IMG/VR virus record: IMGVR_UViG_3300028048_000083
Coordinates: 59,364 to 123,363 of that record
Direction: 5' to 3' (one strand)
Source of the DNA: a virus
Taxonomy: Duplodnaviria; Heunggongvirae; Uroviricota; Caudoviricetes
Length of the DNA stretch: 64,000 bases
Shown here: positions 10,206-53,421 of the stretch, in pieces
Layout of the letters: each line of letters begins with the position of its first letter
Numbering within the stretch: position 1 is the stretch's first letter
Position numbers and translations under genes: made by a program
Notes under the pieces: model-generated
Databases searched by the model: none
Told to the model about the DNA's origin: nothing
What the model saw: only the letters and a program-made list of their open reading frames with translations

Positions 10206-11633
10206 TTATTTTTTAAAATTGTAATATTGTTCAACCAACGCCTTAAGATAAGGATTATTATCCGCATCAGCATAAATTTGATATTTATAACGGATGTCAA
10301 GCAGAATTTGATTCATTTTTTCAGCATCCATATGTTCTGGAAGGGTTGACTCAGCAATAGCTTTGTCAAGTGCATCTTTCTTATTTTCGAGTTCCTTTAT
10401 AAGATATTCATACTCATACTTATGGTTACGAATATCAAGTAGGAAATCAGCGTCAATACCCTTGCGGTAAATCTGAACCTTGCCAGTCTGGGCGATTTCA
10501 AGACCCATATTAAGCAGACGGAAGCAGTGCATCACATTCTTGCTGTCGTAATTGTGACCAAGATTGCTCTCATAGCGAACCTGGCTGCGTTTCTGAACCC
10601 ACTCCTGATACTGGTGGTATTTATTGCAATGTTGGGTAAACCCATCCTTATTATAAGTCATAACACAGATTGGCTCCTCATTCTTCGGAATTGAAGAACA
10701 ACGCACAGTGTCACTCTTGTTGATGTCATTGACGATATACTTAACACCATCCTCTTCAATGATTTTTGCTGCAGTTAAAACTTTGGTATCCTCGTCATAG
10801 AAGTAGTAATCACCTTTGTTATCAACCTTGATTTCTTTATTATTCTTTACTTCATCCACAGGAATCTTGACACCGTAATCCTTTACAATGCCACGATATC
10901 CGATTGGTTTTTGGGTATTATCGAACCATTCTCGTATTTCATGATGGAATAAATCAAACACGTCGTCAACCACAAAATTGTAATATTTTTTATCGTTATA
11001 AAACTCGCAGAATTCTGTATATTTGTTGTGGTTATGTGCACCGAAATCGTAATATACACCGTAGCAGTCAGGCATGTTGTTGAGTGAAACAAGACCGCAG
11101 TACTTCTGTTCAAGACCACGGGCATCAAGCCACTCCTTCATACAGGCACTACCCTGTTTGTATGAAGTAAAACAGAAATCAAGCGGCTCCTTACGTTCTG
11201 TAATGGGCTGGACACACATCTTGTTATAACCACGAGCTCGTTTAATCTGGGCAATGGCATAGCCAATAAATGAATTGAAACAATCCTTGGTCACAAACTC
11301 CTGACGATGCTTTTTAAGCTCAGTGATAATCGGGTGTTCATAGATAACAAAACGGTCGTCAATGAAAAGGGATTCAAGGATATTTGGATTACTTGAAAGC
11401 AGAAGGGTCAGATACTTCTTAAGGGAGTACCATGTATTGTCATGTTTATCATCAGCAATCTCATCCTGGAAATCAAGTCCAAGTCCAAGTACCTGGTTGA
11501 TAGGCTCAAGGTACACACCACCATGGTCTTCGTCGGACTCAGGGGTGTTGGTGCCGTATGCTACGCTTCCGCGCACATATTCATACAGGAGCCATCCGTT
11601 ATTTCTTATATCGTCAAATGTGTATTTCTTCAT
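10206..11633 (-). CDS. Pol-beta superfamily nucleotidyltransferase (COG3541-like)
   Basis: N-terminal LYEYVRGSVAYGTNTPESDEDHGGVY matches the nucleotidyltransferase GS-x-AYG...SDxD signature. 475 aa. Confidence 0.6.
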   Translation of the reverse strand: MKKYTFDDIRNNGWLLYEYVRGSVAYGTNTPESDEDHGGVYLEPINQVLGLGLDFQDEIADDKHDNTWYSLKKYLTLLLSSNPNILESLFIDDRFVIYEHPIITELKKHRQEFVTKDCFNSFIGYAIAQIKRARGYNKMCVQPITERKEPLDFCFTSYKQGSACMKEWLDARGLEQKYCGLVSLNNMPDCYGVYYDFGAHNHNKYTEFCEFYNDKKYYNFVVDDVFDLFHHEIREWFDNTQKPIGYRGIVKDYGVKIPVDEVKNNKEIKVDNKGDYYFYDEDTKVLTAAKIIEEDGVKYIVNDINKSDTVRCSSIPKNEEPICVMTYNKDGFTQHCNKYHQYQEWVQKRSQVRYESNLGHNYDSKNVMHCFRLLNMGLEIAQTGKVQIYRKGIDADFLLDIRNHKYEYEYLIKELENKKDALDKAIAESTLPEHMDAEKMNQILLDIRYKYQIYADADNNPYLKALVEQYYNFKK

Positions 11634-11648
11634 AATCTATTTTATTGC

Positions 11649-11942
11649 TTATTGTTTATTGTAGCGTTTGACAATAGAGGTGAATTCATACGGTGAAATA
11701 TGTGGGTAATAACCGAATGACAGTTCACCTGTTTCACAATTTCTGAACATATACTCGTTGATAGAATAAGGGTGATTTTTGCGGTTGGTTTCATTGTCGG
11801 CAATCTTGCCTTCATAGATATAGATACCCTGGTGGATACCGTAATGGATTTCATATCTTTTACCAGCCTCCAATACCAAATTATCCCATCCTTTGATAGT
11901 CTCAGGAGTTTTGTCAAAAATTATGTCATCGCCAAATTTCAT
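11649..11942 (-). CDS. hypothetical protein
   Basis: 97-aa ORF with a class-B upstream motif at 11965-12000. Confidence 0.45.
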   Translation of the reverse strand: MKFGDDIIFDKTPETIKGWDNLVLEAGKRYEIHYGIHQGIYIYEGKIADNETNRKNHPYSINEYMFRNCETGELSFGYYPHISPYEFTSIVKRYNKQ

Positions 11943-12001
11943 ATTTCCGAATTTTTAATTTACTATATAACCAAATCAAGACAGTTTTTTCCACAAAAAA
12001 A

Positions 12002-12199
12002 TTAAATTTTTGCTGGACTACAGTCATTATCGTTATTCGTTGAAGACCTCCGTTCTCGGTTGGTGTCATGTTTCCACCTGACATGTATGTCGTCGTCTTC
12101 CATTGTCAGAAATCCATTATGGACGCCGTTGTTCCATAAAGCTTCACACACTTTAGGCAACGCATACGGTGCCACTCCAAAGTCGATATATTTATCCAT
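12002..12199 (-). CDS. hypothetical small protein
   Basis: 65-aa ORF. Confidence 0.3.
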   Translation of the reverse strand: MDKYIDFGVAPYALPKVCEALWNNGVHNGFLTMEDDDIHVRWKHDTNRERRSSTNNDNDCSPAKI

Positions 12200-12214
12200 A
12201 GTTTACTGAAAAAA

Positions 12215-12613: not shown

Positions 12614-12632
12614 TATGCTTTTTTATTTTTGA

Positions 12633-13424: not shown

Positions 13425-13432
13425 TTAAAGTT

Positions 13433-22462: not shown

Positions 22463-23281
22463 TTACCTGACAGGAATTGCACCAATACTGTCAAAACGTT
22501 CCCTACCATCCTCATTGGTTAGTTGGAAACCATCAAAGGCTTTCCAATAATGACGTGTGTAAGTAGCTGGAATATTTGGATTTGTACGTTCTCCAGTGTA
22601 TTCAAATTCCTCTTCAACACGGTAAATGAACCGACCGAATTTCTTTCCATCCTCATAATCGTTCCAATCAACACCAGTCATTTCCTTAAGGAGGTTAATC
22701 TGCTCGTCTGCGTTCAGGCTTTCAAGTTGCTTGTGTGAAATTCTAGCCTGAGCTGCCTGTTGCTTTGAGTTACGGATACAGTCAATCTGCCTGTAAAGGA
22801 ACCAGGCAAACACATCATTATATGTAGGTAGATTCCAACACTTACAGTCAAACTGATATAGTGGCATATCAACAATAGTATCAATAGTTTGATGTGTAGG
22901 GATATATTTAATCGCGTGTTGAGTCATTAGATTATTGAACTTTGCCGTTGCCAAAGATGCAATAATCGAAAGCATTTTGGTAAGTCTGTAACCGAAGAAT
23001 GATTCAGTGTTCTCATTCTCGAAGTCTGTAATGACCAGTGAAATCTCATCTGACTGGACATAACCGAATTTGGCACCTTCCACTTTGGAACATACGTATT
23101 TGGCTGTCTCATTCATCATATCAATGAAATTATCGTCAAACGGTTTCTCAAACTTGTTCTTAATCATGGTTGAAAAAGAACGACCATCTAAGAAAACTAA
23201 AACATAACTTTTCGGCATTAACTTATAATCGGTCAAGCCACGGAAATACTCCATTCTGTCTTTTAATGTGTTAAATCTCAT
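22463..23281 (-). CDS. Thg1-like protein (tRNA-His guanylyltransferase family, 3'-5' polymerase)
   Basis: YVLVFLDGRSFSTMIKNKFEKPFDDNF resembles Thg1 VVRIDGKGFHKFTKKHGFEKPND. GYVQSDEISLV resembles Thg1 AYGQSDEYSFV, the second catalytic carboxylate motif. 272 aa. Confidence 0.8.
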   Translation of the reverse strand: MRFNTLKDRMEYFRGLTDYKLMPKSYVLVFLDGRSFSTMIKNKFEKPFDDNFIDMMNETAKYVCSKVEGAKFGYVQSDEISLVITDFENENTESFFGYRLTKMLSIIASLATAKFNNLMTQHAIKYIPTHQTIDTIVDMPLYQFDCKCWNLPTYNDVFAWFLYRQIDCIRNSKQQAAQARISHKQLESLNADEQINLLKEMTGVDWNDYEDGKKFGRFIYRVEEEFEYTGERTNPNIPATYTRHYWKAFDGFQLTNEDGRERFDSIGAIPVR

Positions 23282-23484
23282 ATTCTGTATCCTTTAATGT
23301 CTGTATAATTTTTGTCGGGGTTTATGTCAAAAGCGCAAAACCATTCACTCCAGTTGGCGTCACTGTATTTTTCAAGGAATCTGGCATATTCTTCACATTT
23401 GGATTTGTCGTGGAAGTATATTATGTGTGCATGTGACGTCAAGGGGTACCATCTTCCTCCGAACTTATACATGATTTTGTACAT
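23278..23484 (-). CDS. hypothetical small protein
   Basis: 68-aa ORF. Confidence 0.35.
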   Translation of the reverse strand: MYKIMYKFGGRWYPLTSHAHIIYFHDKSKCEEYARFLEKYSDANWSEWFCAFDINPDKNYTDIKGYRI

Positions 23485-23953
23485 TCCAGTATTTGTTAAA
23501 TATGGTTATTCCGTCAACATTGCCATATTTGCCAGGCTTAATGTACATGTAACAATCTGTCTCGCTTACAAGCTCGTCTATCATGGTCGGGTGTTTTTTA
23601 CACACGTCCTGGAATATCATGTTGACTTGTTTCTTTTGCCATGAACGAACAACACGGGTAATGCCGATATGGTTGTTGATGAACATACCCAAGTCATCCA
23701 GTTTGTACCATAACCGAAGAAGTAACTGGGTTAAGTTAGGTTTAGATGGGTTGATGTATTTACGGTAATTGCCGAGCCAACACAACCATGACCCGTCCCA
23801 AAGTGAAAAAAAGTCTGTACGGTAGCACCCGTACTTCTCTTTCCCAGCAACAGTTATATGGCATTTGTTCAACCTTATGTTAAGTTCACGGATGGCATCA
23901 TTCAACTCATCACCCCATTCCAGGAACCATTCATCACCCCATATGTGCATCAT
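23465..23953 (-). CDS. hypothetical protein
   Basis: 162-aa ORF. Confidence 0.45.
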   Translation of the reverse strand: MMHIWGDEWFLEWGDELNDAIRELNIRLNKCHITVAGKEKYGCYRTDFFSLWDGSWLCWLGNYRKYINPSKPNLTQLLLRLWYKLDDLGMFINNHIGITRVVRSWQKKQVNMIFQDVCKKHPTMIDELVSETDCYMYIKPGKYGNVDGITIFNKYWNVQNHV

Positions 23954-23962
23954 ATCTGAAGT

Positions 23963-24829
23963 TTAATATATTATTTCATCTGTTTTTAAATCCCTTAGCA
24001 ACCCTTCGTCGTCAATGTAGAAGCACTTGTGGCAGTCAATGCAAATGTTGCTGTTGTATACGGCAGGTGCGTCTATTACCCAGGTGTTCCAGGTGTGCTC
24101 CTCAATATTATGGTCAAAAACCTGTTTTAACTGTTGTGTATGTCCGAATATTTGTACATAAGGGGTAGGGGGAGCCATAAAAAATTCATGGCAGTCACTC
24201 CAAACAATTGACCCGCATTCGCAATGCCCTCCACGATAAAATCCTATATCGTTTAGGGCATATCTGAATTTGAAATCCCCTTTGTTGAACATGTCGGTTA
24301 ACGTTTTGCATATGGTTTCGGCACTGGTGGATAACACGTTATAATTCTCAATCAGTTTGTTTCTCTCAATCCATTCATTCTGGACGCCAGCGTGTGAAAA
24401 CAGGAATACCCTGTCACTGGCTGGTGTTGCTTCTGAATCCGTTAGCTGGTACATTTTACCAGGTATTGTTGCCATGTCGATTATTTTGAACAATTCATGG
24501 TTTGATGTGAATATGTCAAACAATTTGTTGCTATATTTAACATCAAACCTGTTGGCTGATACGTTCCATCTGTCATTCACACTACGGCGATAATACGACA
24601 AATCGTGATTGCCAATGAGCAATGTTACTTTATCCGAATGGGACTTGGCGAATTCCACAATTTCCTCAAAGTTATTGATTGAGTCTAAGTAACTGATGCC
24701 TTCATATTCATAAGGGTCATGGTAATCCCCTAAAAAGACAATCTTTTCACATTCGTCCACAAATGGGAGGATGTCTTTCCAAAACTGCCTGCCATGTACG
24801 TCTGGCACTAAAAGTATTTTTTTCTCCAT
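23963..24829 (-). CDS. Metallophosphoesterase (calcineurin-like phosphatase)
   Basis: VPDVHGR...FLGDYHD...GNHD signature motifs. 288 aa. Confidence 0.8.
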   Translation of the reverse strand: MEKKILLVPDVHGRQFWKDILPFVDECEKIVFLGDYHDPYEYEGISYLDSINNFEEIVEFAKSHSDKVTLLIGNHDLSYYRRSVNDRWNVSANRFDVKYSNKLFDIFTSNHELFKIIDMATIPGKMYQLTDSEATPASDRVFLFSHAGVQNEWIERNKLIENYNVLSTSAETICKTLTDMFNKGDFKFRYALNDIGFYRGGHCECGSIVWSDCHEFFMAPPTPYVQIFGHTQQLKQVFDHNIEEHTWNTWVIDAPAVYNSNICIDCHKCFYIDDEGLLRDLKTDEIIY

Positions 24830-24831: not shown

Positions 24832-25164
24832 TCAGTCTCCAATAATTTCCATAGGGACAAAGACATCATATCCGTCGTTGTCTTCAAAATGATTAATCAA
24901 TTCTTCATAACGATGTCCAAATTTGTATCGTTCATAGACAAATTTGCCGTCTCCCCATTTTGCTTCATCTGCATTTATGCATTCGCCCTCATAGACCTTT
25001 CCAAAGACAAGTTCTGACTTCGGAATAACTCTCACTATATTAGGAGAAACACCTTCTCCATACATAGCACAACCATAACAATCATCCGTCATACCCATCA
25101 GATTACAATGTCCGCCATCAGGATGCCCCATATATATTCCATTATCTTTAATAACTTCAATCAT
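24832..25164 (-). CDS. hypothetical protein
   Basis: 110-aa ORF. Confidence 0.4.
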   Translation of the reverse strand: MIEVIKDNGIYMGHPDGGHCNLMGMTDDCYGCAMYGEGVSPNIVRVIPKSELVFGKVYEGECINADEAKWGDGKFVYERYKFGHRYEELINHFEDNDGYDVFVPMEIIGD

Positions 25165-25624
25165 TATGCGCAGTGTTTAAAATGCCAATAGCTTTATAGC
25201 ATTCGCATGTAGTTAAACCATGCCTGTTGTCGCAATATACAAAATGTCTCATCTGTTCCTCCAGCATGTCCCTGTCATCATCGAGTATGGCATATGACTC
25301 CAAAGGTTCATGGTCTTTTTCGTAATCGTCAATCCACGCTTTAATTTCCTCGCCCCTTATACGGCTTGCGCAGTATGGTGTGACACTGGTGATTTTATAA
25401 TTGAACCCGCATTCCTCAAGTCTTTTTTGTGTTTCACTAACATTACCACGCCATGAAGACGAGAGTACAACCTCTGCACCAGTTTCTTCGATAATGTAGT
25501 TAAGGAACACTACAGCCCGTTCATCAATAAACTGGTCAGAATCAAACTTTTTGGATTTTATACGATATACAGCATAATCCTCGGAATTCATAATGCCGTC
25601 GATATCAAGAAACAATGCCTTCAT
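25157..25624 (-). CDS. HAD-superfamily phosphatase-like protein
   Basis: N-terminal ALFLDIDGIMN (HAD motif I, DxDG). Size is similar to the phosphatase domain of polynucleotide kinase-phosphatases. Confidence 0.5.
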   Translation of the reverse strand: MKALFLDIDGIMNSEDYAVYRIKSKKFDSDQFIDERAVVFLNYIIEETGAEVVLSSSWRGNVSETQKRLEECGFNYKITSVTPYCASRIRGEEIKAWIDDYEKDHEPLESYAILDDDRDMLEEQMRHFVYCDNRHGLTTCECYKAIGILNTAHND

Positions 25625-31858: not shown

Positions 31859-32194
31859 TTAGACTATTTTTATCTGTTTTTTGGTAACATCTGGTTTTGG
31901 GTGTGGCACTTCATCAAATTTCAGTTCATCCAAAGCATCATATATCTTTTTGATATTTGAAATTGATTGCCTATTTGTGCACCAAAGGGTTTCAGTTATT
32001 GAGTCACTGCCACTAACTTTATATCTGATATGCAATTCTCCAATCAAAAGGTTTCCAACCCTTACACTTGGGTCAAAGAACACATTTGCTATTTCTGGCG
32101 TTATTTCAACCAATTCCTGGGCATCATAAGTCTTTAAATCATCGCCATCATATAATTTAATTATCGTGTCTAACAGTATGTACTTTGATTTCAT
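31859..32194 (-). CDS. hypothetical protein
   Basis: 111-aa ORF. Confidence 0.4.
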   Translation of the reverse strand: MKSKYILLDTIIKLYDGDDLKTYDAQELVEITPEIANVFFDPSVRVGNLLIGELHIRYKVSGSDSITETLWCTNRQSISNIKKIYDALDELKFDEVPHPKPDVTKKQIKIV

Positions 32195-32634
32195 AGTTCA
32201 CGTTTTGATTGTCTGTCAATATCCCTCTCTTTAATATCCCTGCGCTTGTCGTATGTTTTTTTGCCACTGGCAATAGCAACCACCACTTTGCACAAGTTTC
32301 TCTCATTGATGAAAAGCTTATATGGCACAACAGTCATTCCCTTGATTTTAACCTGCTCATATATTTTCTTCAATTCACTTTTGTTCAAGAGCAGTTTCCT
32401 GTCCCTGTTGTAATCCTTGGCTGTATACGTGTCGTGTTCACGTTTTGGAGTCACAACCGAATTTTTAAGAAACAGTTCATTTCCAACAAAATGACAATAA
32501 GATTCAGAAATGTTGACACGTCCATCTCTGATTGCGCTGATTTCCGCGCCATTCAACACAATGCCAGCAACATATGTGTCCTTGAACTCATAGTTGAAAC
32601 TTGCCTTTTTGTTTGTAATTTCAAATCTTTTCAT
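32191..32634 (-). CDS. smpB: SsrA-binding protein SmpB homolog
   Basis: NKKASFNYEFKDTYVAGIVLNGAEISAIRDGRVNISESY...NRDRKLLLNKSELKKI...KGMTVVPYKLFINERNLCKVVVAIASGKKTYDKRRDIKERD matches the SmpB family end to end. Confidence 0.85.
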   Translation of the reverse strand: MKRFEITNKKASFNYEFKDTYVAGIVLNGAEISAIRDGRVNISESYCHFVGNELFLKNSVVTPKREHDTYTAKDYNRDRKLLLNKSELKKIYEQVKIKGMTVVPYKLFINERNLCKVVVAIASGKKTYDKRRDIKERDIDRQSKREL

Positions 32635-37315: not shown

Positions 37316-38251
37316 TTAAAACAATTCAAATTTAACAAGCGCGTCAGTTAGCTTATCCAGGTCGCAACTCCAATGGCTTTTGTTATATGAGGCGTAATAG
37401 TCATTTACCTTGTAATCCTCGATTTCGCAACAATCCGCCCGAATTCCCTTGTATGTCAGGAAAGGAATTGCTGGATAAAGTATTGTCAGTAATTTGTCAA
37501 ATTCGTCAAACTCACACGGTTTATCGCCACCGACCGAACGTTCGTGACCGTCATATGACCATTCAGTGCCACCAGTTATCCACGGTTCACCATATAAAAA
37601 GTTGCCTTTGACACAAAAACCGACTTGGTTGGCAGCACTATAGACATAAGCTCTTGTACGTTCAGCACTGTCAGCTTTATATGCATTCCAGATTTCACGG
37701 TGTTTGCTTTCAACCAAAATATCACACTCAATATCCAGACTATTGGCAATTTTGGCTGAAGCCACCGCTTTTATTTTCTCCACATCGACAGGTTCAAAAA
37801 TACAGGTTTCTATTGTGGATTTTGCACTGCGAGTCGGATTGGCGAATGACCTTATCATGTCGTTTTTGATACACAGTTCGCGGTTATCGTCAAAATCTAT
37901 AATGGTGAATTTGTACGAACTATCGTGTAACATGCAATGATAGCGGTTGACCAAAGTGTATATCAGATTAGCCAAATCATTGTTAGTCAAACACAAGCAA
38001 TCGACATATACCGTGGCTTTTTCTGGTTTGTACGAAAACCATATGCTGTCGTCATATGAACGCTCATAATTTGCTGTAAAAACAGCATCTCTAAGACGTT
38101 TTTCAAGTTTTTTAATTGAACAATCATATGTACTATCCAAATTCAAGTATTCAGCCTCTTCTTTTTTCTGAAGCTTTTCACTAACCAAACGCTTGAAAAG
38201 CGTGGTTTTACCACTGCCTGGCAATCCATGAGCAATCAAAAACTTTTTCAT
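37316..38251 (-). CDS. P-loop kinase (polynucleotide kinase-like), tentative
   Basis: N-terminal Walker A LIAHGLPGSGKTTLFKRL, like T4 Pnk-type 5'-kinases. 311 aa, with a class-B motif upstream at 38279-38314. Confidence 0.5.
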   Translation of the reverse strand: MKKFLIAHGLPGSGKTTLFKRLVSEKLQKKEEAEYLNLDSTYDCSIKKLEKRLRDAVFTANYERSYDDSIWFSYKPEKATVYVDCLCLTNNDLANLIYTLVNRYHCMLHDSSYKFTIIDFDDNRELCIKNDMIRSFANPTRSAKSTIETCIFEPVDVEKIKAVASAKIANSLDIECDILVESKHREIWNAYKADSAERTRAYVYSAANQVGFCVKGNFLYGEPWITGGTEWSYDGHERSVGGDKPCEFDEFDKLLTILYPAIPFLTYKGIRADCCEIEDYKVNDYYASYNKSHWSCDLDKLTDALVKFELF

Positions 38252-40618: not shown

Positions 40619-40918
40619 TCAGATTTCTTCACTTATTACGATGGCTCCTTGTATCCATATGCGTTTACCGTCAAGGTCGAAGAACACCTGGTTGTCCGCA
40701 CCGTCGTCACGTATGTCGAATTTGCCTTTGTATGTCCTGATGGTGTCTCCGTTATAGCTGTATACCGTCAATGTACGGTTGAGACCGCCACCCCAGTCAC
40801 TGCCAATGCTTTTTATTTCACGTTTGCAGCTTTGTGGACCAAAAGCAAAAAACGCAAAAGCCAAACCAACGATAATAAGTATAACCACAAAAATGCCAAA
40901 AAATGTTCTTTTTTTCAT
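40619..40918 (-). CDS. membrane-anchored protein
   Basis: N-terminal TM segment FFGIFVVILIIVGLAFAFFAF. 99 aa. Confidence 0.45.
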   Translation of the reverse strand: MKKRTFFGIFVVILIIVGLAFAFFAFGPQSCKREIKSIGSDWGGGLNRTLTVYSYNGDTIRTYKGKFDIRDDGADNQVFFDLDGKRIWIQGAIVISEEI

Positions 40919-41454
40919 ATTCTAAAATATTTTCCGTAATTAAAATTCAATTTGTCTTTAATCCTATAATATCTGGACTTGATTGTACTTTCGGGCATCC
41001 CAAACATTTTGGAAATCTCCTTGAATGTGTATTCGTCGATAGCGACAAGATTCACCAAAGTACGTTCCTCTTCAGTCAGACAGCGCATGATTTTCAGAAT
41101 CAAGTCCTGTTTCTCATAATCGGTAGCCAAATCAAAATCGTCGCTTAATTCAGGAAGGAATTCACTCTCTATTGGAAGATACCGATACTTCATGTCCTTC
41201 TTGTAGCGGTTAATGATTTGCCTCATAATTATCCTGTGCATCCATCCCTCAAAGGTTCCGTCACCCCTGTATTTTTTGATATTGGCAAATATTGACACGA
41301 AACCTTCAACCAACACATCCTGGGCAATGTCATCGTCAGCCGAATATCGTCGGCATAAAGCATAAAACTTAGGACTGTACTTGTCATATAAGGCTCGTTG
41401 CATTGAAGGGTTGTTGTTTCGGCACCCTTCTATAATGTTGTCTATATTATCCAT
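40915..41454 (-). CDS. RNA polymerase sigma factor, sigma-70 family (ECF-like)
   Basis: Region 2-like LYDKYSPKFYALCRRYSADDDIAQDVLVEGFVSIFANIKKY and region 4-like LTEEERTLVNLVAIDEYTFKEISKMFGMPESTIKSRYYRIKDKL. 179 aa. Confidence 0.85.
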   Translation of the reverse strand: MDNIDNIIEGCRNNNPSMQRALYDKYSPKFYALCRRYSADDDIAQDVLVEGFVSIFANIKKYRGDGTFEGWMHRIIMRQIINRYKKDMKYRYLPIESEFLPELSDDFDLATDYEKQDLILKIMRCLTEEERTLVNLVAIDEYTFKEISKMFGMPESTIKSRYYRIKDKLNFNYGKYFRI

Positions 41455-42062: not shown

Positions 42063-43367
42063 TCAATTGGTAGAGTTTTTCATGGGGTTGGCGCAAAAGC
42101 CTATTCTTTTTTCAACCTTCTTGAGTATACTAGCACCGCCTACGGGATTACTGGAATATGAATATGGTCTATCGTCTTCAGCCTCAGGGGTATCATAACA
42201 ATAATTCATCCCAAACTCATCTTCATTAGTATCGCGTAATGGGTTGGTTTTTTCAGTAACATTGAAATTGACCGTTATGTAATCTGGAGTCAGGTTTCTG
42301 TAGTATAAGATAAGGTCTTTGGTTTCCTGGTTTGCAATTGAAGATACGTTCATCCATTCATTGTCAATGTTTTTAGTATCAATATACAATCCATATTCTT
42401 TATTGTATTTCAAATCCTCAACTTTGAAAATACAGTCGCCCAAACGAGTCCATCCCTTAGGCTGGAATAATTCACAACGAATACATTTATTCGAAAACGG
42501 TGTATAATAAAACTTACTCACAAGTCTGTCACCATTGGTGAACATTAAATTAAGAGAGCCTTGCCTTTCTTCGTTGTAACCGATATTCAAATCGTCAAAG
42601 GTGTCAATAAGGCTGTATCCATTGTTAAGTTCAAACACAAGACTGCGCAGGCAATCATAGTTCAAAGCGTTTACATAAGCAAACAAAGTTATCTTGTCAA
42701 TACTCTCAATGCATTTTTCGGTATTGATATTGTCGTGCATGTACTCGGTAATATCATCATATTTCGGTTCAGAGAACGAAAAACTGTAGTGAAAACGACC
42801 AGGTCTGTTGTATATGTATTGCGACAAGTTCGAAACGCTGTTGCAGGTTATGATAAACATCTTCTTGGTCATGTTGATGCCGTCAAAAGTGGACAGCATT
42901 TCATTTTGCTCACTCCCGCGTTTCTCATCATGTACAAACATTTTCTCAAATTCATCAAACAGGAAAACACATTCCTGGCTAATCTGTGTCATAAATGTTG
43001 GTAAAGACGGGTGATAGAAATTCACGTTGATTACAGGATAGCCAGCGTTTATCATGTTGATACACATTTGCTTGGCGAATAAAGTTTTACCATTGCCCTT
43101 GTTACCCACAAGCATGATACCTAAGCTGCGGTTGAACTCCTTGTAGGTCTTCATACACTTGGCGATTTTGTTCTGGTCACTGCCATAGACTTTTCCGTTG
43201 ATTTCAGGTCTGGTTGTCTTTACTACGAAAGGACCATTGTCATCCACCATAAACTGGTAAAAGTCAGGTTCAAACTGGTCGTAAACCTCAATGTTTTCGC
43301 CATATACTCTGTATTTGCCTTCTGTCTTTATTATTTGCATAGTTCTATTTTTTTTTTCTATTAACAT
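42063..43367 (-). CDS. AAA+ ATPase
   Basis: Walker A LGIMLVGNKGNGKTLFAKQM and Walker B CVFLFDEFEKM. 434 aa. Confidence 0.7.
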   Translation of the reverse strand: MLIEKKNRTMQIIKTEGKYRVYGENIEVYDQFEPDFYQFMVDDNGPFVVKTTRPEINGKVYGSDQNKIAKCMKTYKEFNRSLGIMLVGNKGNGKTLFAKQMCINMINAGYPVINVNFYHPSLPTFMTQISQECVFLFDEFEKMFVHDEKRGSEQNEMLSTFDGINMTKKMFIITCNSVSNLSQYIYNRPGRFHYSFSFSEPKYDDITEYMHDNINTEKCIESIDKITLFAYVNALNYDCLRSLVFELNNGYSLIDTFDDLNIGYNEERQGSLNLMFTNGDRLVSKFYYTPFSNKCIRCELFQPKGWTRLGDCIFKVEDLKYNKEYGLYIDTKNIDNEWMNVSSIANQETKDLILYYRNLTPDYITVNFNVTEKTNPLRDTNEDEFGMNYCYDTPEAEDDRPYSYSSNPVGGASILKKVEKRIGFCANPMKNSTN

Positions 43368-44218: not shown

Positions 44219-44596
44219 TTATAAACATTTCAATGACTTTAAATATGAATTCAAATATGAAAGTATGTTTTCCCTTCCGTCTGGATTGGATGAATGGCAT
44301 TCGAATTTCGGTAACGGCATGTTGTATTTCATACAAGTCTCAACCAAGACTTTCGCACAGTCAAGTCCAGTCTTTTCCTCACCCAAATCGTGGTCGAAGC
44401 AAACCAGCGCGGGAAACAGTTCCGCAGGGTCGTCCATAACCTTTGACATCCAGTCACAGAATTTTTCATATGTTTTAATCCACACGACCACAGGTTCACC
44501 TTTAAAATCGTGTGAGTTTTTCTGTATCACTGGATACCAGTCGTAACTGAAAGGATTCCTCCTGTCATCTAACCATATAACCAAATTGTTGAACAT
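44219..44596 (-). CDS. hypothetical protein
   Basis: 125-aa ORF with a class-B motif upstream at 44604-44640. Confidence 0.45.
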   Translation of the reverse strand: MFNNLVIWLDDRRNPFSYDWYPVIQKNSHDFKGEPVVVWIKTYEKFCDWMSKVMDDPAELFPALVCFDHDLGEEKTGLDCAKVLVETCMKYNMPLPKFECHSSNPDGRENILSYLNSYLKSLKCL

Positions 44597-44639: not shown

Positions 44640-45668
44640 TCATTTAATTGGTATCAGTGTTTCGGAATCAACATCCAATTGTCTGCAATTGTATTTAACA
44701 GCCTCCCTTGATGCGTTGGCATAACAATATATACAGAAATGCGGACAAGTGTTGTATGCCCCTATATCTTTGCTTAACATGCACCCACATTCCTTCCGTT
44801 GTCCTCTGTCTTTCCACCAATTGGTTGATACTTTATCGATAGACAATAACCCGCCATAATTCAGAAAATTCAAAAAGGAAATATCATCGGCTGCAATTTT
44901 CTTGAATTGCTCACTGTCAATACACCTGTTATGCTGGATGTCATATTGTTCAAGGTTGAACTTTTCGCCACAGGTAGCCAGTTCAATCTCCCAGCCATCC
45001 TCTTTCCATTTGTCGCGTAGAGCGGCTATTCTGGACGCTATGGCATTCATCAGGTCTGGGGTGTATTCACTGTCCAGTATCGTTTCGTTGGTGAAACCGT
45101 TGCCGTATTTTAATAGGTTGGTTTGGACTTTTTTGTAGCAGTTGATGTCAACAAAACTGAAAACAAGTTTGTTTGTATACCCCTTTATTTTGTTTCCAAT
45201 GTTTTCAATCCTGCCGATGAGTTCATCCTGGTTCATCGGCATAAGCGGGTCAAACCGCCAGATTACCCTGTCGGCCCCTACAGTATTCGACAAGTTGATA
45301 AATGTCTCAATACGCTTGTCAAGCGGCGGCAAATTCGGTTCAAACCCCTCTTTTTCATAGTCGTTCAAAGTGTATTGGAAATATGTGTGTATACCCTGCT
45401 CGTCAAGTTCCTTTTGGAAATCTATGATTTTCTTGTGGGGATTCTTTGTCCAGAACACAATACCTTTCACTTTCTCATATGATATATATTGAGGTATGTT
45501 GGTATAAGGGTTGTTCCATACAGAATAGCCTGCTTTCCAACGGTTCATGAACCAGTTGAAATGAAAAGCGGGAATATCGGTGGAACGGCTGACGGACAAT
45601 ATGACAGGTGCTATAGCATCAACTGTATTGCCGTTCGGTAGTGTGAGTTTAACTTTTTCGTGTGCCAT
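44640..45668 (-). CDS. DUF1848-like protein with C-terminal Cys cluster, tentative
   Basis: 342 aa with C-terminal ECGCMLSKDIGAYNTCPHFCIYCYAN, suggesting an Fe-S or metal site. The similarity to DUF1848 is judged by eye. Confidence 0.35.
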   Translation of the reverse strand: MAHEKVKLTLPNGNTVDAIAPVILSVSRSTDIPAFHFNWFMNRWKAGYSVWNNPYTNIPQYISYEKVKGIVFWTKNPHKKIIDFQKELDEQGIHTYFQYTLNDYEKEGFEPNLPPLDKRIETFINLSNTVGADRVIWRFDPLMPMNQDELIGRIENIGNKIKGYTNKLVFSFVDINCYKKVQTNLLKYGNGFTNETILDSEYTPDLMNAIASRIAALRDKWKEDGWEIELATCGEKFNLEQYDIQHNRCIDSEQFKKIAADDISFLNFLNYGGLLSIDKVSTNWWKDRGQRKECGCMLSKDIGAYNTCPHFCIYCYANASREAVKYNCRQLDVDSETLIPIK

Positions 45669-48313: not shown

Positions 48314-49108
48314 TTATTCAACGGGTTTTGGACAAAGTTTCACCAACTCGCTTCTCAAATTGTTGAATTTTTCCTGGTACTTCTCCTTATAATAGTCCCA
48401 TGTGGGGGTTTCAGCGCTTTTTATTTCCCACCACAAATCGTTGGCACACGAATAGTCATATATCTTGCCAGTCTGTGCAATCTGTATTGCAAACATGTAG
48501 ATGCGCATTGAGTGCCACAATGATTTTTGTCCAATCCTTAAGTCATAGTCTTTTTCAACTGTCAGCTTTTTCTTGGCTTTTACCCACGAATTACTGCAGA
48601 CAGCCGATACCGATTCGCGCAGTTTCCATTTGTCAAGTTTGAAATACTCTTGGTACATGCCTTTCGAATCACCTTTCAGGGTCGGTGAAAAAATACACTC
48701 TAAGGCGGCTATGTCGTGTTTTTCAATTTGTGCAATGAAGTCTTTCTCACACACAAACTGATAGTCTACGTTGGCAAATTTATCTTTATATTCGAAAATA
48801 TGTCTTGGATATTGCGACAGCAAATTATAAAAACTGTCGGGTACCACCACTAAATAGTCAGTATCTGAAACGCCTTTTTCATAAGTACCATACACACGAG
48901 ACCCACGGGCAACAGCGAACAAATATGTGGTGCTTTCAAGCTTATTGACCAATTCTGTTTCATATTTGTCAACATATTCATCCAGAATACTTTTCAATAC
49001 TGGAGTGACGTAACTGTTTTCATGTATATAAGGGCTTGCTGCATTTTTGTTATACAATTCCCTTAGGACATCTACCTGTTCCTTCAAGATTTCATATTTG
49101 TTTTTCAT
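48314..49108 (-). CDS. Pol-beta superfamily nucleotidyltransferase (COG3541-like), second copy
   Basis: YLFAVARGSRVYGTYEKGVSDTDYLVVVP matches the GS-x-YG...SDxD nucleotidyltransferase motif. Paralogous in motif to the 10206-11633 gene. Confidence 0.6.
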   Translation of the reverse strand: MKNKYEILKEQVDVLRELYNKNAASPYIHENSYVTPVLKSILDEYVDKYETELVNKLESTTYLFAVARGSRVYGTYEKGVSDTDYLVVVPDSFYNLLSQYPRHIFEYKDKFANVDYQFVCEKDFIAQIEKHDIAALECIFSPTLKGDSKGMYQEYFKLDKWKLRESVSAVCSNSWVKAKKKLTVEKDYDLRIGQKSLWHSMRIYMFAIQIAQTGKIYDYSCANDLWWEIKSAETPTWDYYKEKYQEKFNNLRSELVKLCPKPVE

Positions 49109-50153: not shown

Positions 50154-50171
50154 TTTAGTTCAAATTATATG

Positions 50172-50573: not shown

Positions 50574-50574
50574 A

Positions 50575-51201: not shown

Positions 51202-51451
51202 CTTCTTTTTTCTTTTTCAAATAATCAAAATCCAAATTAAGTGTGTTCCAGACGTATTTCATGAACCAGTCTGGAAAACGCTTATAGATTATTATGTCAA
51301 TCCTGAAAATCCACCACATGAAAATAAGTGTAGGCATTGAATAACATACATCCAAAGTAAGACTGGGAAGTAGATACAAGTATCCCCAGTGTTTCATTGT
51401 CAAGAATTTGATTTCAATTGGAAATTTCTTTTTCCGATTTGAGTGTTCCAT
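51191..51451 (-). CDS. small membrane protein
   Basis: 86 aa with hydrophobic helices. Confidence 0.35.
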   Translation of the reverse strand: MEHSNRKKKFPIEIKFLTMKHWGYLYLLPSLTLDVCYSMPTLIFMWWIFRIDIIIYKRFPDWFMKYVWNTLNLDFDYLKKKKEDDE

Positions 51452-51456
51452 ATGTT

Positions 51457-51882
51457 TTACTTAATCAATTTGGTTAAACAGAATTTGATTGCTTCCTCAA
51501 CAGCCTCCTCGTAGGTATTTTTCTCGATAATGCCATCCATTGGTACTGTCGGAACATACTCTTTAGTAACATTTATGACATCGAAATCATACCAAATCTC
51601 CCCATTGGCATAATCGCCACAATTGATTTCTATGAAAAGACCGTGAACTTCCCTGAGCCACTTCATCACTACAGCAAGGCTGACATGCGGCAACCCGTCT
51701 GTTATCGTCGCACTGCTAAACGGAATGTCTGGGTCGTAATCTGGGTTTGGTTTCTCAATATGATACTGTTGAACCCAAACATCCCTGTCCTGCCAGTCTT
51801 CAAAGGGATTGGATTCCCAGTCAAAACCTTTCTCGTAGAGCAGTTTTGCCAATTCAAAATTAGCATACACTTCTTTGCACAT
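51457..51882 (-). CDS. hypothetical protein, paralog of 50172-50573
   Basis: LAKLLYEKGFDW, MKWLREVHGL, EEAIKFCLTKL. Confidence 0.5.
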   Translation of the reverse strand: MCKEVYANFELAKLLYEKGFDWESNPFEDWQDRDVWVQQYHIEKPNPDYDPDIPFSSATITDGLPHVSLAVVMKWLREVHGLFIEINCGDYANGEIWYDFDVINVTKEYVPTVPMDGIIEKNTYEEAVEEAIKFCLTKLIK

Positions 51883-51900
51883 ACTTAAATTTTATATATT

Positions 51901-52125
51901 TTAAAAAACAATCCAGTCAGTGATTTTTATGTCTTGTACATATAAACCGTTTACACCGTCATGGCTTTTAATGAACTCCGCTAGTTCTTTGGCTTTATCC
52001 TCCGAACTGCATATACTGTTAAGTTCATGCGAACCGTTAGTATAAATGGTTTCCACCGTCCATACAATGCCGATTTTGTTCCCTACTTCATTTTCCATCC
52101 CGAAGTTTTTATTCTTTTCAAACAT
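51901..52125 (-). CDS. hypothetical small protein
   Basis: 74-aa ORF. Confidence 0.35.
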   Translation of the reverse strand: MFEKNKNFGMENEVGNKIGIVWTVETIYTNGSHELNSICSSEDKAKELAEFIKSHDGVNGLYVQDIKITDWIVF

Positions 52126-52477
52126 TTTTGGCCAAGGGTGTATTGTAATTAAGGTGCCTGATATTCTCCAAATCTTCTGGAGGTATTTCGTTTCTCAGTT
52201 TTACATAAAAATCTTCCATAGCCTGTTCCGACTGGAAACAAACCAGAGCATCAATAACTTCATCAAAACAATGCACAATGCCAGCCTCAGTCAATTCTCT
52301 GTCAGCAACGCCGATTTCATTATTAGACCATTCAAATGTCCACAAATTGCAACTGTAATTAGTCTTCAGTTTGTCTTTAATCAAGGAAATTCTTTCGTCC
52401 TTTTTCAGATTGAAATATTCTTCCCTTCCATCGGATTTACCGATATACTCTTTTAACCTGTCAGTATATGATGACAT
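52118..52477 (-). CDS. hypothetical protein
   Basis: 119-aa ORF. Confidence 0.4.
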   Translation of the reverse strand: MSSYTDRLKEYIGKSDGREEYFNLKKDERISLIKDKLKTNYSCNLWTFEWSNNEIGVADRELTEAGIVHCFDEVIDALVCFQSEQAMEDFYVKLRNEIPPEDLENIRHLNYNTPLAKNV

Positions 52478-52482
52478 ACGGC

Positions 52483-53421
52483 TTACTTTATGTTCTCAAT
52501 CATTTCGATATTATCCATGTACCACTTGTGGAAATTGTGGTATTCAACATCACCGACTTCATTAACCACATTACGAAGGTCATCGTAGTCACAATGCTTG
52601 ATTTTGACAATGATGCGGTTACCGCGCGGGTCTTTGATTGGGACGACAGGTCTTGCAACAATGCCTTCTTCGATAAAATCAGGATTGTCAGCATTAGGAA
52701 CCTTGGTTTTGAAGCCTTCAATCACCATTTTCTCAGCTTCATCGATAGTCATTTGACCAAGATAAGGGACAACATCCAAACCGAGATTGCCACAGTATTC
52801 GTCCAACATATTGATTGGAATCCACCAACCCTGCTGGTAGATATCAAATACACTGAAACGGTTATTCTCCTTGTCATAGTTGCCGCCGCATTTCTGGATT
52901 TTCTTTCCGAAAAACTCGCCATAGATGTATACAGGAACCTCTTCCAGCTGCACACCATAGAAATTGCCGTTCTCTTTGAAGTCAACCTCATTGATGTTTG
53001 CGATAGGTTCACCACACTCAGCCCAATAATACTGAATCTGGTTTTTGTCATTCAGAACTGGGGTGAAACGGGCACTCTCTGGCGGAAACATTTCAGTCAG
53101 GATTGGTTTGATTCGTTCAATAACCTGGTCAAGCATGGCTTTCTGACCCGTTCCGACAATATCAGCGTTATCAGTCTTGCCGCCACAGAAACATTCGCCT
53201 GTTGATGGAAGATAGATAATTTTCGAATTGGTTCCATCCAGTTTCGAAAAACAGTCGAATTTCAAATCCTTAATATATTCCATGTAATCGTCGGAGAAAC
53301 AACCCATTATAATTTTGTTTTGGAATTTAGCCCAAATCTTGTTCGGAAGTTCCACCTTGTTAAGGTTTTTGTAACGACGGTACAAGGTGTTGATTTTTTG
53401 ATATGTAAGAGTTTTTTGCAT
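52483..53421 (-). CDS. ATP-dependent RNA ligase (Rnl2-like)
   Basis: Nucleotidyltransferase motif I FSKLDGTN (KxDGxN), motif IV EGIVARP, motif V IVKIKH. 312 aa. Confidence 0.75.
   Translation of the reverse strand: MQKTLTYQKINTLYRRYKNLNKVELPNKIWAKFQNKIIMGCFSDDYMEYIKDLKFDCFSKLDGTNSKIIYLPSTGECFCGGKTDNADIVGTGQKAMLDQVIERIKPILTEMFPPESARFTPVLNDKNQIQYYWAECGEPIANINEVDFKENGNFYGVQLEEVPVYIYGEFFGKKIQKCGGNYDKENNRFSVFDIYQQGWWIPINMLDEYCGNLGLDVVPYLGQMTIDEAEKMVIEGFKTKVPNADNPDFIEEGIVARPVVPIKDPRGNRIIVKIKHCDYDDLRNVVNEVGDVEYHNFHKWYMDNIEMIENIK

Follow-up and report, generated by a model that had tools for sequence, protein, structure and literature searches.

A putative distributed RNA end-repair pathway in a large gut phage, a remote relative of the Lak megaphages of Prevotella

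Overall, after analyzing a 64,000-nucleotide stretch of phage DNA (the window), we propose that a large gut phage, a distant relative of the Prevotella Lak megaphages, probably encodes a distributed end-repair pathway for RNA, most likely tRNA, which is plausibly used against host tRNA-cleaving defences. Every step of this putative pathway is drawn from the biochemistry of the enzyme families concerned. Cleavage of a tRNA, or of some other RNA used in translation, by a host nuclease would leave a 5'-OH on one side and a 3'-phosphate or 2',3'-cyclic phosphate on the other, and at times nucleotides would be lost as well. The g37 and g39 module would turn the 3' ends into 3'-OH, perhaps with the help of g79, and g64 would put a phosphate on the 5'-OH. 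One or two nucleotides missing on the 3' side would be replaced by g13 and g89, whereas 5'-truncated acceptor stems would be rebuilt in the 3'-5' direction by g34. As the final step, g98 would seal the 3'-OH to the 5'-phosphate. The damaged translation apparatus may also be approached from other angles, by SmpB, by a tRNA of the phage's own and by a vWA protein that is a possible RNA-binding scaffold.

About 121 ORFs are densely arrayed on the minus strand of the window, among them all seven RNA-repair candidates named in the initial annotation (g98, g64, g39, g37, g34, g13 and g89). Their coordinates and minus-strand orientation were confirmed exactly, and each motif quoted for them was located in its ORF. 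The ORFs were searched against Pfam profiles, with bit scores judged against the Pfam gathering cutoff; six of the seven family calls lay above curated thresholds with catalytic motifs intact. Homologs of each of the seven occur in other metagenomic phage contigs, and these ORFs are far above chance-ORF expectation. Further related genes in the window encode a cRec protein, a DUF2828/vWA protein, SmpB, an SPFH protein and a tRNA-Arg. The features are as follows.

4167..5615, minus strand: g5, DUF2828/DUF7788 protein, helical in its N-terminal part and containing a vWA domain (phrog_850)
6258..6341, minus strand: tRNA-Arg(CCU) with a long variable arm (ARAGORN; Rfam RF00005, 36.9 bits)
10206..11633, minus strand: g13, RlaP-family Pol-beta nucleotidyltransferase carrying a large insertion, candidate for restoring nucleotides at 3' ends
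22463..23281, minus strand: g34, bacterial-type Thg1-like protein (TLP), candidate for tRNA 5'-end repair
23278..23953, minus strand: g36 (162 aa) and g35 (68 aa), unannotated, between the phosphoesterase and Thg1-like genes
23963..24829, minus strand: g37, calcineurin-like metallophosphoesterase, candidate 2',3'-cyclic phosphodiesterase or 3'-phosphatase
24832..25164, minus strand: g38, small ORF of 110 aa between g39 and g37 (phrog_18490)
25157..25624, minus strand: g39, HAD phosphatase of the 'Swiss Army Knife' RNA-repair family, candidate 3'-phosphatase
32191..32634, minus strand: g53, SmpB, tmRNA-binding ribosome-rescue factor (PF01668)
37316..38251, minus strand: g64, P-loop kinase-like protein, candidate RNA 5'-OH kinase
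44219..44596, minus strand: g79, cRec ('cyclic-phosphate processing receiver' domain; PF20274)
48314..49108, minus strand: g89, second, smaller Pol-beta nucleotidyltransferase, RlaP-related (phrog_388)
52483..53421, minus strand: g98, ATP-dependent RNA ligase with the PF09414 nucleotidyltransferase domain only
57431..58222, minus strand: g106, membrane-anchored SPFH/Band-7 protein (PF01145)

The repair genes are scattered across more than 43 kb among unrelated genes, and they are likewise spread out in Lak-A1. The sole compact block, HAD-x-MPE-x-x-TLP, runs from g39 to g34 as six tightly packed genes whose start and stop codons overlap or abut; g38, which matches a profile of unknown function (phrog_18490, 4e-23), shares 8 nt with g39 and is separated from g37 by 2 nt, and g36 and g35 had no match in Pfam or PHROG. 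The HAD phosphatase g39 matches HAD_SAK_2 (PF18143, 86.3 bits against a cutoff of 27.5, 3.3e-24) and carries D7-I-D9-G (D7-x-D9), S55-S57 and D115-D117. The metal-binding motifs of g37 (DVHG, GDYHD, GNHD and GHT) are complete; it matches Metallophos (PF00149, 34.1 bits, cutoff 21.5, 4.8e-8) and, at 5e-5, the phosphoesterase region of the 737-residue 'RNA ligase' profile phrog_8238. The metallophosphoesterase fold is generic and most of the 2,890 representatives of the g37 family are standalone, which counts against a repair reading. However, g37-type and HAD_SAK genes stand side by side in another megaphage, on a contig of 380 kb (L010) and about 4 kb from RlaP, and one family member (P0409) is a HAD_SAK_2-Metallophos fusion protein. 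By these gene arrangements (one ORF apart here, adjacent in L010, fused in P0409), g37 and g39 form a predicted linked module.

On tRNA with a truncated 5' end, Thg1-like proteins carry out template-dependent nucleotide addition (PMC4820378). The g34 protein matches Thg1 (PF04446, 96.9 bits, cutoff 29.2, 1.2e-27), phrog_4717 (1e-59) and, across the full catalytic region with the D and DE motifs aligned, the Thg1-like protein of PDB 4KGK (2.6e-32). It shares its catalytic carboxylates (D32 and D78-E79) with the bacterial TLPs (PDB 4KGK; PMC3701042, PMC4820378), has 'CIRNSKQ' at the position of the Thg1 HINNLYN, and is 52-53% identical to its homologs in Lak phages. In contrast to the bacterial TLPs, g34 is phage-encoded, has approximately 40 additional C-terminal residues and lies in a block with two phosphoesterases. 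A Thg1-like gene had been called uncommon in a phage, and the frequency agrees (161 of 50,697 records), but such genes are known and already annotated there.

Both nucleotidyltransferases have the GS...DxD motif (G22-S23...D34-x-D36 in g13), and g89 has in common with g13 not only the GS motif but also a C-terminal H..R..IAQTGK motif. Matches to RlaP (PF10127, 74.5 bits, cutoff 23, 1.4e-20) and phrog_388 (2.7e-53) place g13 in the RlaP family, and its homologs in Lak phages and 232-380 kb contigs are 41-48% identical. The g89 match to NTP_transf_2 (PF01909) is marginal (21.5 bits, cutoff 21) and that to phrog_388 reaches 3e-11; its relatives match PF01909/PF18765 and not PF10127, but comparison of the g89 and g13 families with hhalign gave 94.9% probability (E=4.4e-8). 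We therefore rejected g13 and g89 as CCA-adding enzymes, since the profile and family comparisons give RlaP for g13 and an RlaP relative for g89. RlaP adds one or two NMPs at damaged RNA 3' ends and is required for over-damaged tRNA to regain aminoacylation (PMC12776372). Therefore, the rebuilding of CCA, raised earlier as a possibility, is unsupported for either protein.

The ligase g98 matches RNA_ligase (PF09414, 54.7 bits, cutoff 27, 1.8e-14) and the PHROG 'RNA ligase' profile phrog_548 (4e-21). Its motif I is K60-LDGTN, and motifs I (K60), III (E169), IIIa (F189/D193), IV (E252-G253) and V (K273/K275) are invariant among 17 homologs. Although it had been described as 'Rnl2-type' and T4 Rnl2 was its only match, a weak one, in a PDB sequence search, we rejected g98 as a canonical Rnl2: it scored 24 bits against the 197-bit TIGR02307 cutoff, and the Rnl2 C-terminal domain cannot fit because just 37 residues remain past motif V. 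We found 1,319 homologs, on contigs of up to 473 kb; the best 120 of the 1,319 are at least 70% identical. A 41 kb phage contig encodes a vWA/DUF7788 protein, a Metallophos protein, a g98-type ligase and a second ligase-like protein inside 8 kb, and HAD_SAK_2 lies about 4 kb from a g98-type ligase in a 152 kb phage contig.

In g64, about 150 aa at the N-terminus make up the kinase domain, with the P-loop motif GLPGSGKT, and a further conserved domain, of about 155 aa, follows at the C-terminus. Pfam gave only sub-threshold P-loop matches within the first 50 or so residues (AAA_33, 23.9 against 27), and g64 was classified from a structure model. The best fold matches of the model are RNA/tRNA kinases, Trl1-type foremost. 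The initial call of a Pnk-like kinase thus holds as far as kinase-like; the best structural matches are RNA/tRNA 5'-kinases but are non-exclusive, so the modeled fold makes g64 a candidate RNA 5'-OH kinase and is also compatible with small-molecule kinases. The fungal/plant tRNA ligase Trl1 (LIG-KIN-CPD) and the Mucorales standalone RNA 5'-OH kinase (PMC11571804) are the closest sequence and fold matches of the kinase domain, at only 14-17% identity. The C-terminal domain gave no assignable fold and differs from the Trl1 CPD in having no invariant histidine, whereas a 2H domain needs two H-x-T/S motifs. Unlike the KIN-CPD pairing of Trl1, the window yielded no 2H enzyme. However, the g64 homolog of Bacillus phage G lies two genes away from a 2H/LigT phosphoesterase, which echoes that pairing.

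Other genes extend the set. cRec domains are predicted to open 2',3'-cyclic phosphate ends and have been linked to RNA ligases (PMC7824862); g79 matches PF20274 at 3.7e-19, adjoins the DUF1848 gene g80 (44640-45668) and has no detectable homolog in Lak-A1. The g5 protein matches phrog_850 'RNA-binding protein' (2e-52) and both PF11443 and PF25043, and its MIDAS motif, D280-x-S-x-S284, is invariant. Its homologs occur in the ligase cluster of L008 and in Lak-A1 (46% identity). A profile search of the PDB did not find Ro60; g5 is a possible Ro/TROVE-like RNA-binding scaffold. SmpB (g53, 2.2e-45), with homologs of 72% identity in a 386 kb relative and 47% in Lak-A1, is peripheral to end repair yet shares the theme of damaged translation; no tmRNA was found in the window. 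The SPFH protein g106 (2.1e-28) is a tentative and likewise peripheral member; its Lak-A1 homolog lies at most 15 kb from the Thg1-like and phosphoesterase genes of that phage. Burroughs and Aravind reportedly tied SPFH proteins to RNA repair in 2016.

Lak-A1 has homologs of only 13 of the 121 ORFs in the window, nine of them from the extended repair set (9 of 11, compared with 4 of the 110 remaining ORFs; Fisher p=3e-9). For the seven genes first annotated the count is six (Fisher p=3e-6), and the enrichment persisted among ORFs of at least 140 aa (p=1.5e-6) and among Pfam-annotated genes (p=0.004). In Lak-A1, the g37 homolog is 6 kb from the Thg1-like gene. The retention statistic could in part arise because conserved enzymes are easier to detect, yet Lak-A1 yielded no match to ThyX, the sigma factor, AAA, SSB or DUF1848 of the window.

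We also considered whether the enzymes serve the phage's own RNA biology, in the maturation and quality control of its large tRNA complement or in translation takeover, for instance through the trimming or refilling of tRNA ends (5' as well as 3'), G-1 addition to tRNA-His, or the joining of split or intron-containing tRNAs. Besides the toolkit homologs, Lak-A1 has 32 tRNA genes, tRNA-His and suppressor tRNAs among them, the long variable arm of the window tRNA-Arg is unusual, SmpB suggests general translation management, and the Trl1-type kinases, the top fold match of g64, are tRNA-splicing enzymes (PMC11571804). However, we regard this explanation as unlikely: g34 is of the bacterial TLP type, without the HINNLYN of G-1-adding Thg1, RlaP prefers damaged RNA (PMC12776372), and no intron-containing or split tRNAs were seen in the window.

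That the genes are functionally unrelated, the toolkit having been read into an accessory region rich in genes, seems to us quite improbable. In that case, the phosphoesterases and cRec would destroy immune signals of the host (cyclic-nucleotide or ADP-ribose), the P-loop kinase and HAD protein would act in nucleotide metabolism, and the ligase and nucleotidyltransferases would act on other nucleic acids. The dispersal of the genes among others of different kinds fits this account, as do the nucleotide metabolism genes ThyX, thioredoxin and DUF4406 in the window, the non-exclusive fold match of g64, the proposal that calcineurin-like, 2H and cRec enzymes also hit nucleotide signals (PMC7824862), and a weak, sub-threshold match of the phage G 2H protein to Acb1. 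Retention in Lak-A1, the g37/g39 linkage and the g64-2H neighborhood in phage G link the parts to one another. The core of the initial proposal, in which several enzymes together heal, seal and re-extend broken RNA ends, is supported, with families, active sites, fusion or adjacency, and Lak-A1 retention in agreement.

The end-repair set is a well-supported further example of a known jumbo-phage toolkit and no new type of system, because the jumbo-phage set is already published, phage Thg1-like genes are annotated and T4 has RlaP. Iyer, Anantharaman, Krishnan, Burroughs and Aravind (2021, Viruses 13:63; PMC7824862, section 3.4.9) described ATP-dependent RNA ligases, polynucleotide kinase, HAD phosphatases including the standalone 'Swiss-army-knife' type, calcineurin-like phosphoesterases, cRec, RlaP as the commonest nucleotidyltransferase, sporadic Thg1, a ROT/TROVE protein and phage tRNAs, and interpreted them as countering host attack on tRNA and translation. 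The parts list and logic match those of the window. T4 Pnkp and Rnl1 likewise heal cyclic phosphate or 3'-phosphate and 5'-OH ends before an ATP-dependent ligase seals them, and T4 has, besides Rnl2, the RlaP member NrdC.11 (PMC12776372). However, T4 combines kinase and HAD phosphatase in one protein and uses the Rnl1 ligase, whereas the window encodes kinase, HAD, metallophosphoesterase and cRec separately, with a minimal PF09414 ligase and an extra Thg1-like 5'-end repair enzyme. Bacterial Pnkp systems (Clostridium thermocellum Pnkp; Pnkp1-Rnl-Hen1; PMC2190708, PMC4411300) form a single polypeptide or a defined complex with the Hen1 methyltransferase; the window parts are separate and dispersed, and Hen1 was not found among them. 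Whereas the survey covered 224 mostly cultured jumbo phages, the present phage comes from the gut, is uncultured and has the Lak megaphages as relatives. Its ligase falls outside Rnl1 and Rnl2 proper, its kinase is not of the PNK-HAD fusion type and has an unassigned C-terminal domain, and it encodes SmpB, SPFH and DUF1848 proteins, which the survey does not mention. Additionally, the pairing of the phosphoesterase with HAD_SAK, and their fusion in a related protein, are documented here.

With moderate confidence, we interpreted these genes as an RNA/tRNA end-repair pathway that probably serves in counter-defence. The initial annotation had read seven proteins from the sequence as a dispersed RNA/tRNA repair toolkit; the core of that reading held, and its Rnl2 label for the ligase, its suggestion of a CCA-adding enzyme and the rarity or novelty that it implied did not. 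All seven ORFs lie on the minus strand at exactly the coordinates it had given, within a tightly packed minus-strand array (~121 ORFs in the window), and the catalytic motifs that it quoted were found in the ORF sequences. The family calls were above curated Pfam cutoffs for six of the seven, the P-loop ORF giving sub-threshold matches only. Pfam scans of all window ORFs, with PHROG checks, added four protein candidates that had not been listed before (g5, g53, g79 and g106), which together with the seven form an extended set of eleven.

Features of the proposed repair set and the associated tRNA
4167-5615, minus strand: DUF2828/DUF7788 vWA protein (g5); phrog_850 'RNA-binding protein', 2e-52
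6258-6341, minus strand: tRNA-Arg(CCU); ARAGORN, and 36.9 bits in a relaxed Rfam scan
10206-11633, minus strand: RlaP-type nucleotidyltransferase (g13)
22463-23281, minus strand: Thg1-like protein, TLP (g34)
23963-24829, minus strand: metallophosphoesterase (g37)
25157-25624, minus strand: HAD_SAK protein (g39)
32191-32634, minus strand: SmpB (g53); profile match, 2.2e-45
37316-38251, minus strand: P-loop kinase-like protein (g64)
44219-44596, minus strand: cRec (g79); PF20274
48314-49108, minus strand: second nucleotidyltransferase (g89)
52483-53421, minus strand: RNA ligase (g98)
57431-58222, minus strand: SPFH/Band-7 protein (g106); Pfam

Deposited phages gave no match to a 20 kb megablast query. 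Exact-protein look-ups retrieved near-identical contigs with the same gene order from animal-gut metagenomes (ENA ERZ28655929 'WOLF17-1' and SRR8442993), and a 386 kb contig was collinear with the window from g80 to g50 at ~40-78% protein identity. For the Thg1-like and RlaP proteins, the nearest deposited homologs belong to the ~540-550 kb Prevotella Lak megaphages (52% and 41% identity, respectively). From the gut contigs, the collinear contig and these two Lak homologs, we conclude that the window derives from a large phage of the gut with a distant relationship to Lak.

The ligase scored 54.7 bits for PF09414 (RNA_ligase), where the cutoff is 27, PHROGs agreed on an RNA ligase, and motifs I (K60-LDGTN), III (E169), IIIa (F189/D193), IV (E252-G253) and V (K273/K275) were invariant across 17 homologs. 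At the sequence level, it is a member of the PF09414 ATP-dependent RNA ligase superfamily. No DNA-ligase family was matched at E ≤ 0.1 in Pfam and NCBIfam. The more specific Rnl2 label was not sustained: the TIGR02307 score of 24.1 bits fell far short of the 197.15 cutoff, and the Rnl2-specific C-terminal domain is absent. T4 Rnl2 has about 107 residues after motif V; just 37 follow it in g98, which leaves no room for that domain. T4 Rnl2 was nevertheless the sole PDB sequence match, a weak one. The family gave 1,319 matches, of which the best 120, located on contigs of up to 473 kb, share at least 70% identity.

The Thg1-like protein matched PF04446 at 96.9 bits against 29.2, was assigned to tRNA-His guanylyltransferase by PHROGs and found its best PDB match in 4KGK, a bacterial Thg1-like protein (E=2.6e-32); D32 and D78-E79 aligned with the catalytic carboxylates of 'vriDG' and 'qSDEis'. 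HINNLYN is the motif of the G-1-adding eukaryotic Thg1, and compared with 3WBZ, g34 has 'DCIRNSKQQ' in place of the Thg1 'DCHINNLYN'. Given the 4KGK match with its catalytic motifs and the missing HINNLYN, we assign g34 to the bacterial-type TLPs rather than to G-1-adding Thg1, and it is a candidate for 3'-5' nucleotide addition. Bacterial-type TLPs fill 5'-truncated tRNAs (PMC4820378, PMC3701042). Such proteins are uncommon in phages but known: 161 of 50,697 deposited phage records contain one, already annotated as Thg1-like.

The TLP gene shares a block with two putative 3'-end healing enzymes, in which the HAD gene, a small ORF, the metallophosphoesterase gene, two small ORFs and the TLP gene follow one another so closely that their start and stop codons overlap or abut. 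A search of 20.5-30.5 kb for sigma-70 promoters and terminators stayed near background and is uninformative for a probable Bacteroidota host. The HAD protein matched HAD_SAK_2 (PF18143) at 86.3 bits against 27.5 and contains the HAD motifs D7-I-D9, S55-S57 and D115-D117. The metallophosphoesterase matched Metallophos (PF00149) at 34.1 bits against 21.5 and phrog_8238 weakly (5e-5), and a PDB sequence search at E ≤ 1 returned no match; all of its metal-binding residues are present (D10-x-H12, G33-D34...D38, G73-N74-H75-D76, H146, H202 and G229-H230-T). HAD_SAK has a Metallophos gene as its immediate neighbour on a 380 kb phage contig, and one protein of the g37 family (P0409; 41% identity to g37) is a natural HAD_SAK_2-Metallophos fusion. 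It is this context that favours a putative role of g37 as an RNA end-healing phosphoesterase of the Pnkp type.

The first nucleotidyltransferase, g13, scored 74.5 bits against 23 for RlaP (PF10127) and matched phrog_388 at 2.7e-53, and its Pol-beta motif is intact (G22-S23, D34-x-D36); from these features it is clearly recognizable as an RlaP carrying a large insertion. A PDB sequence search with it gave no match. The RlaP family takes its name from a gene neighbourhood with RNA ligase. In the window, RlaP and ligase are not neighbours, being ~41 kb apart, and on the 380 kb contig no ligase was found in the 13 kb covered, where the Metallophos-HAD_SAK pair lies ~4 kb from RlaP. The second, g89, was marginal for NTP_transf_2 (21.5 bits against 21) and had no PF10127 match, its relatives carrying PF01909/PF18765. 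It shares with g13 the phrog_388 assignment (3e-11 for g89), a GS motif and a C-terminal H..R..IAQTGK, and hhalign of the two families gave 94.9% probability (E=4.4e-8). The head-domain family of CCA-adding enzymes and poly(A) polymerases did not come up in Pfam scans of g13, g89 and the other window ORFs; g13 and g89 are not CCA-adding enzymes, and the earlier suggestion of one falls away. RlaP was recently found to add 1-2 nucleotides to damaged RNA 3' ends, and over-damaged tRNA needs RlaP to regain aminoacylation; T4 NrdC.11 belongs to this family (PMC12776372).

The kinase-like protein, g64, gave P-loop matches below threshold, confined to its first ~50 residues, and no PHROG match. Its family of 26 proteins (~50% identity) is conserved end to end, with Walker A, D39, D84, R134 and R141 invariant. 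The best PDB sequence match was the Mucorales tRNA-splicing RNA 5'-OH kinase (E=0.0025; PMC11571804), and the AlphaFold model has a pLDDT of 82; Walker A, the catalytic Asp and the lid arginines of a P-loop kinase fold were all found. TMP, CMP and adenylate kinases ranked below RNA/tRNA kinases and no dNMP-kinase family was detected in Pfam or NCBIfam, so that nucleotide monophosphate kinases are not the closest relatives of g64. A predicted RNA 5'-kinase is thus the best reading, and it is not exclusive because PFK-2 (10.4) and gluconate kinase (10.1) scored nearly as well in the fold comparison, in which TMP kinases reached 7.9. The C-terminal ~155 residues, which are also conserved, could not be assigned to a fold. 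A single full-length homolog of g64 occurs in deposited phages, namely gp242 of Bacillus phage G (23.6% identity over 94% of the query), encoded two genes from gp240, a 2H/LigT phosphoesterase (phage G segment L027, 164540-177304); this neighbourhood echoes the kinase-CPDase pairing of Trl1. An NAD-dependent DNA ligase also lies ~3 kb from gp242, and gp378 of phage G is a Thg1.

Of the added candidates, cRec is predicted to process cyclic phosphate ends (PMC7824862). Immediately upstream of it lies a DUF1848 gene (44640-45668, minus strand; 7e-81) that is 71% identical in the 386 kb relative; no homolog of it was detected in Lak-A1, the complete Prevotella Lak megaphage genome used for comparison, and the searchable literature does not cover its function. 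SmpB is 72% identical in the 386 kb relative and 47% in Lak-A1. Neither ARAGORN nor Rfam detected a tmRNA in the window, and ARAGORN found none across the 541 kb of Lak-A1; the phage SmpB would then either work with the tmRNA of the host or have a phage partner that has diverged beyond detection. SmpB and tmRNA of huge phages were described by Al-Shayeb et al. 2020 (PMC7162821). In the vWA protein g5, DUF2828 and DUF7788 were the only Pfam matches even at E ≤ 0.5, and a three-sequence profile searched against the PDB did not retrieve Ro60; its predicted architecture, in which a helical region is combined with a MIDAS-bearing vWA domain, would be compatible with Ro60.

The region next to g5 also contains RNA features. 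The tRNA-Arg has a variable arm of ~12 nt, unusual for tRNA-Arg. Upstream of it and two genes from g5 lies the largest ORF-free gap of the window (6533-7090, 558 nt). Its RNA (531 nt, minus-strand sense) had a minimum free energy of -130.5 kcal/mol against a shuffled mean of -109.6 (z=-3.2), and we regard the gap as a candidate structured non-coding RNA on the basis of this folding model. At gathering thresholds, Rfam matched nothing in the whole window, the tRNA-Arg included; a relaxed scan of 5600-7200 detected the tRNA only, leaving the gap without a match. Searches with ORF-free 6342-7090 by nhmmer and blastn against all fetched loci and Lak-A1 recovered an identical copy only.

The dispersed genes are linked by three independent lines of evidence, namely module linkage, recurrent neighbourhoods and selective retention. 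Besides the contiguous block and the 380 kb contig, a 41 kb contig carries DUF7788/vWA, Metallophos, a g98-type ligase and a second ligase-like protein inside 8 kb, and a 152 kb contig carries HAD_SAK_2 ~4 kb from a ligase. Single-protein scans of IMG/VR use exact peptide seeds and reach different contigs each; we therefore judged co-occurrence on the complete Lak-A1 genome instead. By tblastn, 13 of the 121 window ORFs have homologs there, and nine of these encode the vWA protein, RlaP, TLP, phosphoesterase, HAD_SAK, SmpB, the second nucleotidyltransferase, the ligase and SPFH. Retention was assessed with Fisher's exact test, comparing toolkit genes with other window ORFs for the presence of a Lak-A1 homolog. 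Homologs were found for 6/7 of the original seven against 7/114 other ORFs (p=3e-6) and for 9/11 of the extended set against 4/110 (p=3e-9). The excess persisted among ORFs of at least 140 aa (9/10 against 4/43, p=1.5e-6) and when the extended set was compared within Pfam-annotated genes only (9/11 against 2/11, p=0.004). No conservation of the kinase-like protein or cRec was detectable in Lak-A1. The toolkit genes are dispersed in that genome too, although one 15 kb stretch holds TLP, phosphoesterase, TelA and SPFH. RlaP-type and HAD_SAK-type proteins occur in 210 and 326 of the 50,697 deposited phage records, and all 15 of 15 Lak records contain Thg1-like, RlaP-type and HAD_SAK-type proteins.

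We propose the following pathway. A cut by a host nuclease would leave a 2',3'-cyclic phosphate or 3'-phosphate and a 5'-OH. The phosphoesterase and HAD protein would regenerate a 3'-OH, possibly helped by cRec, and the kinase-like protein would phosphorylate the 5' end. Lost nucleotides would be put back by the RlaP paralogs on the 3' side and by the TLP on the 5' side, and the ligase would seal the break. Two other explanations were weighed against this counter-defence pathway. The repair genes may serve the phage's own tRNA complement, and the window does encode a tRNA; in the pathway that we favour, this tRNA would compensate for depleted tRNA, and SmpB, retained with the set, would act on stalled ribosomes. 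We consider such a housekeeping role unlikely. Alternatively, the toolkit genes may have unrelated functions. Their dispersal would suit that explanation, which we judge quite improbable.

The favoured end-repair pathway is not a new class of system. Iyer et al. 2021 described the same parts list and logic in jumbo phages (PMC7824862, section 3.4.9), including a standalone Swiss-army-knife HAD, calcineurin-like enzymes, cRec, RlaP, sporadic Thg1 and a ROT/TROVE protein. The concept and most of the parts were already in the literature, and the present set is a new example of a known jumbo-phage toolkit. What distinguishes this case is the minimal ligase outside Rnl2, the module of phosphoesterase and HAD_SAK, a kinase-like protein whose C-terminal domain is unassigned, and the strong selective retention in Lak.

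More speculatively, and with considerable doubt, we suggest that the repair of this gut megaphage lineage may extend beyond T4-style heal-and-seal by three elements that would be new, so that tRNAs lacking nucleotides on either side of a cut would be rebuilt. The metallophosphoesterase and HAD_SAK, sometimes fused, may form a dedicated two-enzyme 3'-end healing step. The RNA 5'-kinase may be lineage-restricted, with its ~155-aa C-terminal domain a new RNA/tRNA-recognition module. Nucleotides may be restored at both ends, by two RlaP paralogs at the 3' end and the Thg1-like protein at the 5' end. The vWA/DUF2828 protein, together with an RNA from the 558-nt ORF-free region, might serve to organise this pathway. 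If the repair set itself works as we propose, Lak-related gut megaphages spend about a dozen genes on keeping tRNAs and ribosomes working under attack and keep these repair genes while nearly everything else in the accessory region turns over; RNA-targeting defences would then be a major selective pressure in gut Prevotella and other Bacteroidota hosts. The minimal ligase, the metallophosphoesterase/HAD_SAK pair, the kinase-like protein and the phage Thg1-like protein are nominated for biochemistry.

Other genes were observed around the repair set. TelA (8412-9521, minus strand; 7e-55) and the adjacent g10 (7811-8425, minus strand) are among the few non-toolkit genes kept in Lak-A1, where 650 bp separate their homologs (447160-448619) from that of the phosphoesterase; RlaP is two genes away from TelA in the window. 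TelA and g10 may also be associated with the repair set. The stretch from the HAD block to SmpB encodes an R2K-clade ATP-grasp protein (g45; R2K_2/R2K_3; 28453-29373, minus strand) and a 315-aa protein whose C-terminal half is DprA/SLOG-like (phrog_768; 30213-31160, minus strand). We considered the former as a second ligase and rejected it, as the literature describes the family as peptide/protein-modifying, with a predicted role in modifying proteins with amino acids (PMC7824862).

An ECF-type sigma-70 factor (40915-41454, minus strand) and an AAA ATPase (42063-43367, minus strand) keep their order in the 386 kb relative. The minus-strand array is broken by a TnpB-like gene on the opposite strand (34327-35496, plus strand), with OrfB_IS605 and a Cas12f1-like TNB domain, which looks like an IS200/IS605-type insertion and has a distant homolog in Lak-A1. 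A 626-aa protein (607-2487, plus strand) resembles an exonuclease at its ends (phrog_298), and its central region gives matches to LAGLIDADG homing-endonuclease domains and to those parts of terminase profiles that contain an intein; the gene is probably interrupted by an intein. Lak-A1 carries suppressor-type tRNAs (anticodon CTA twice and TTA once; loci L020, 25329-26308, and L021, 40204-40276), which fits the recoding of stop codons in Lak phages. The window itself is densely filled with ORFs when read with the standard bacterial code.
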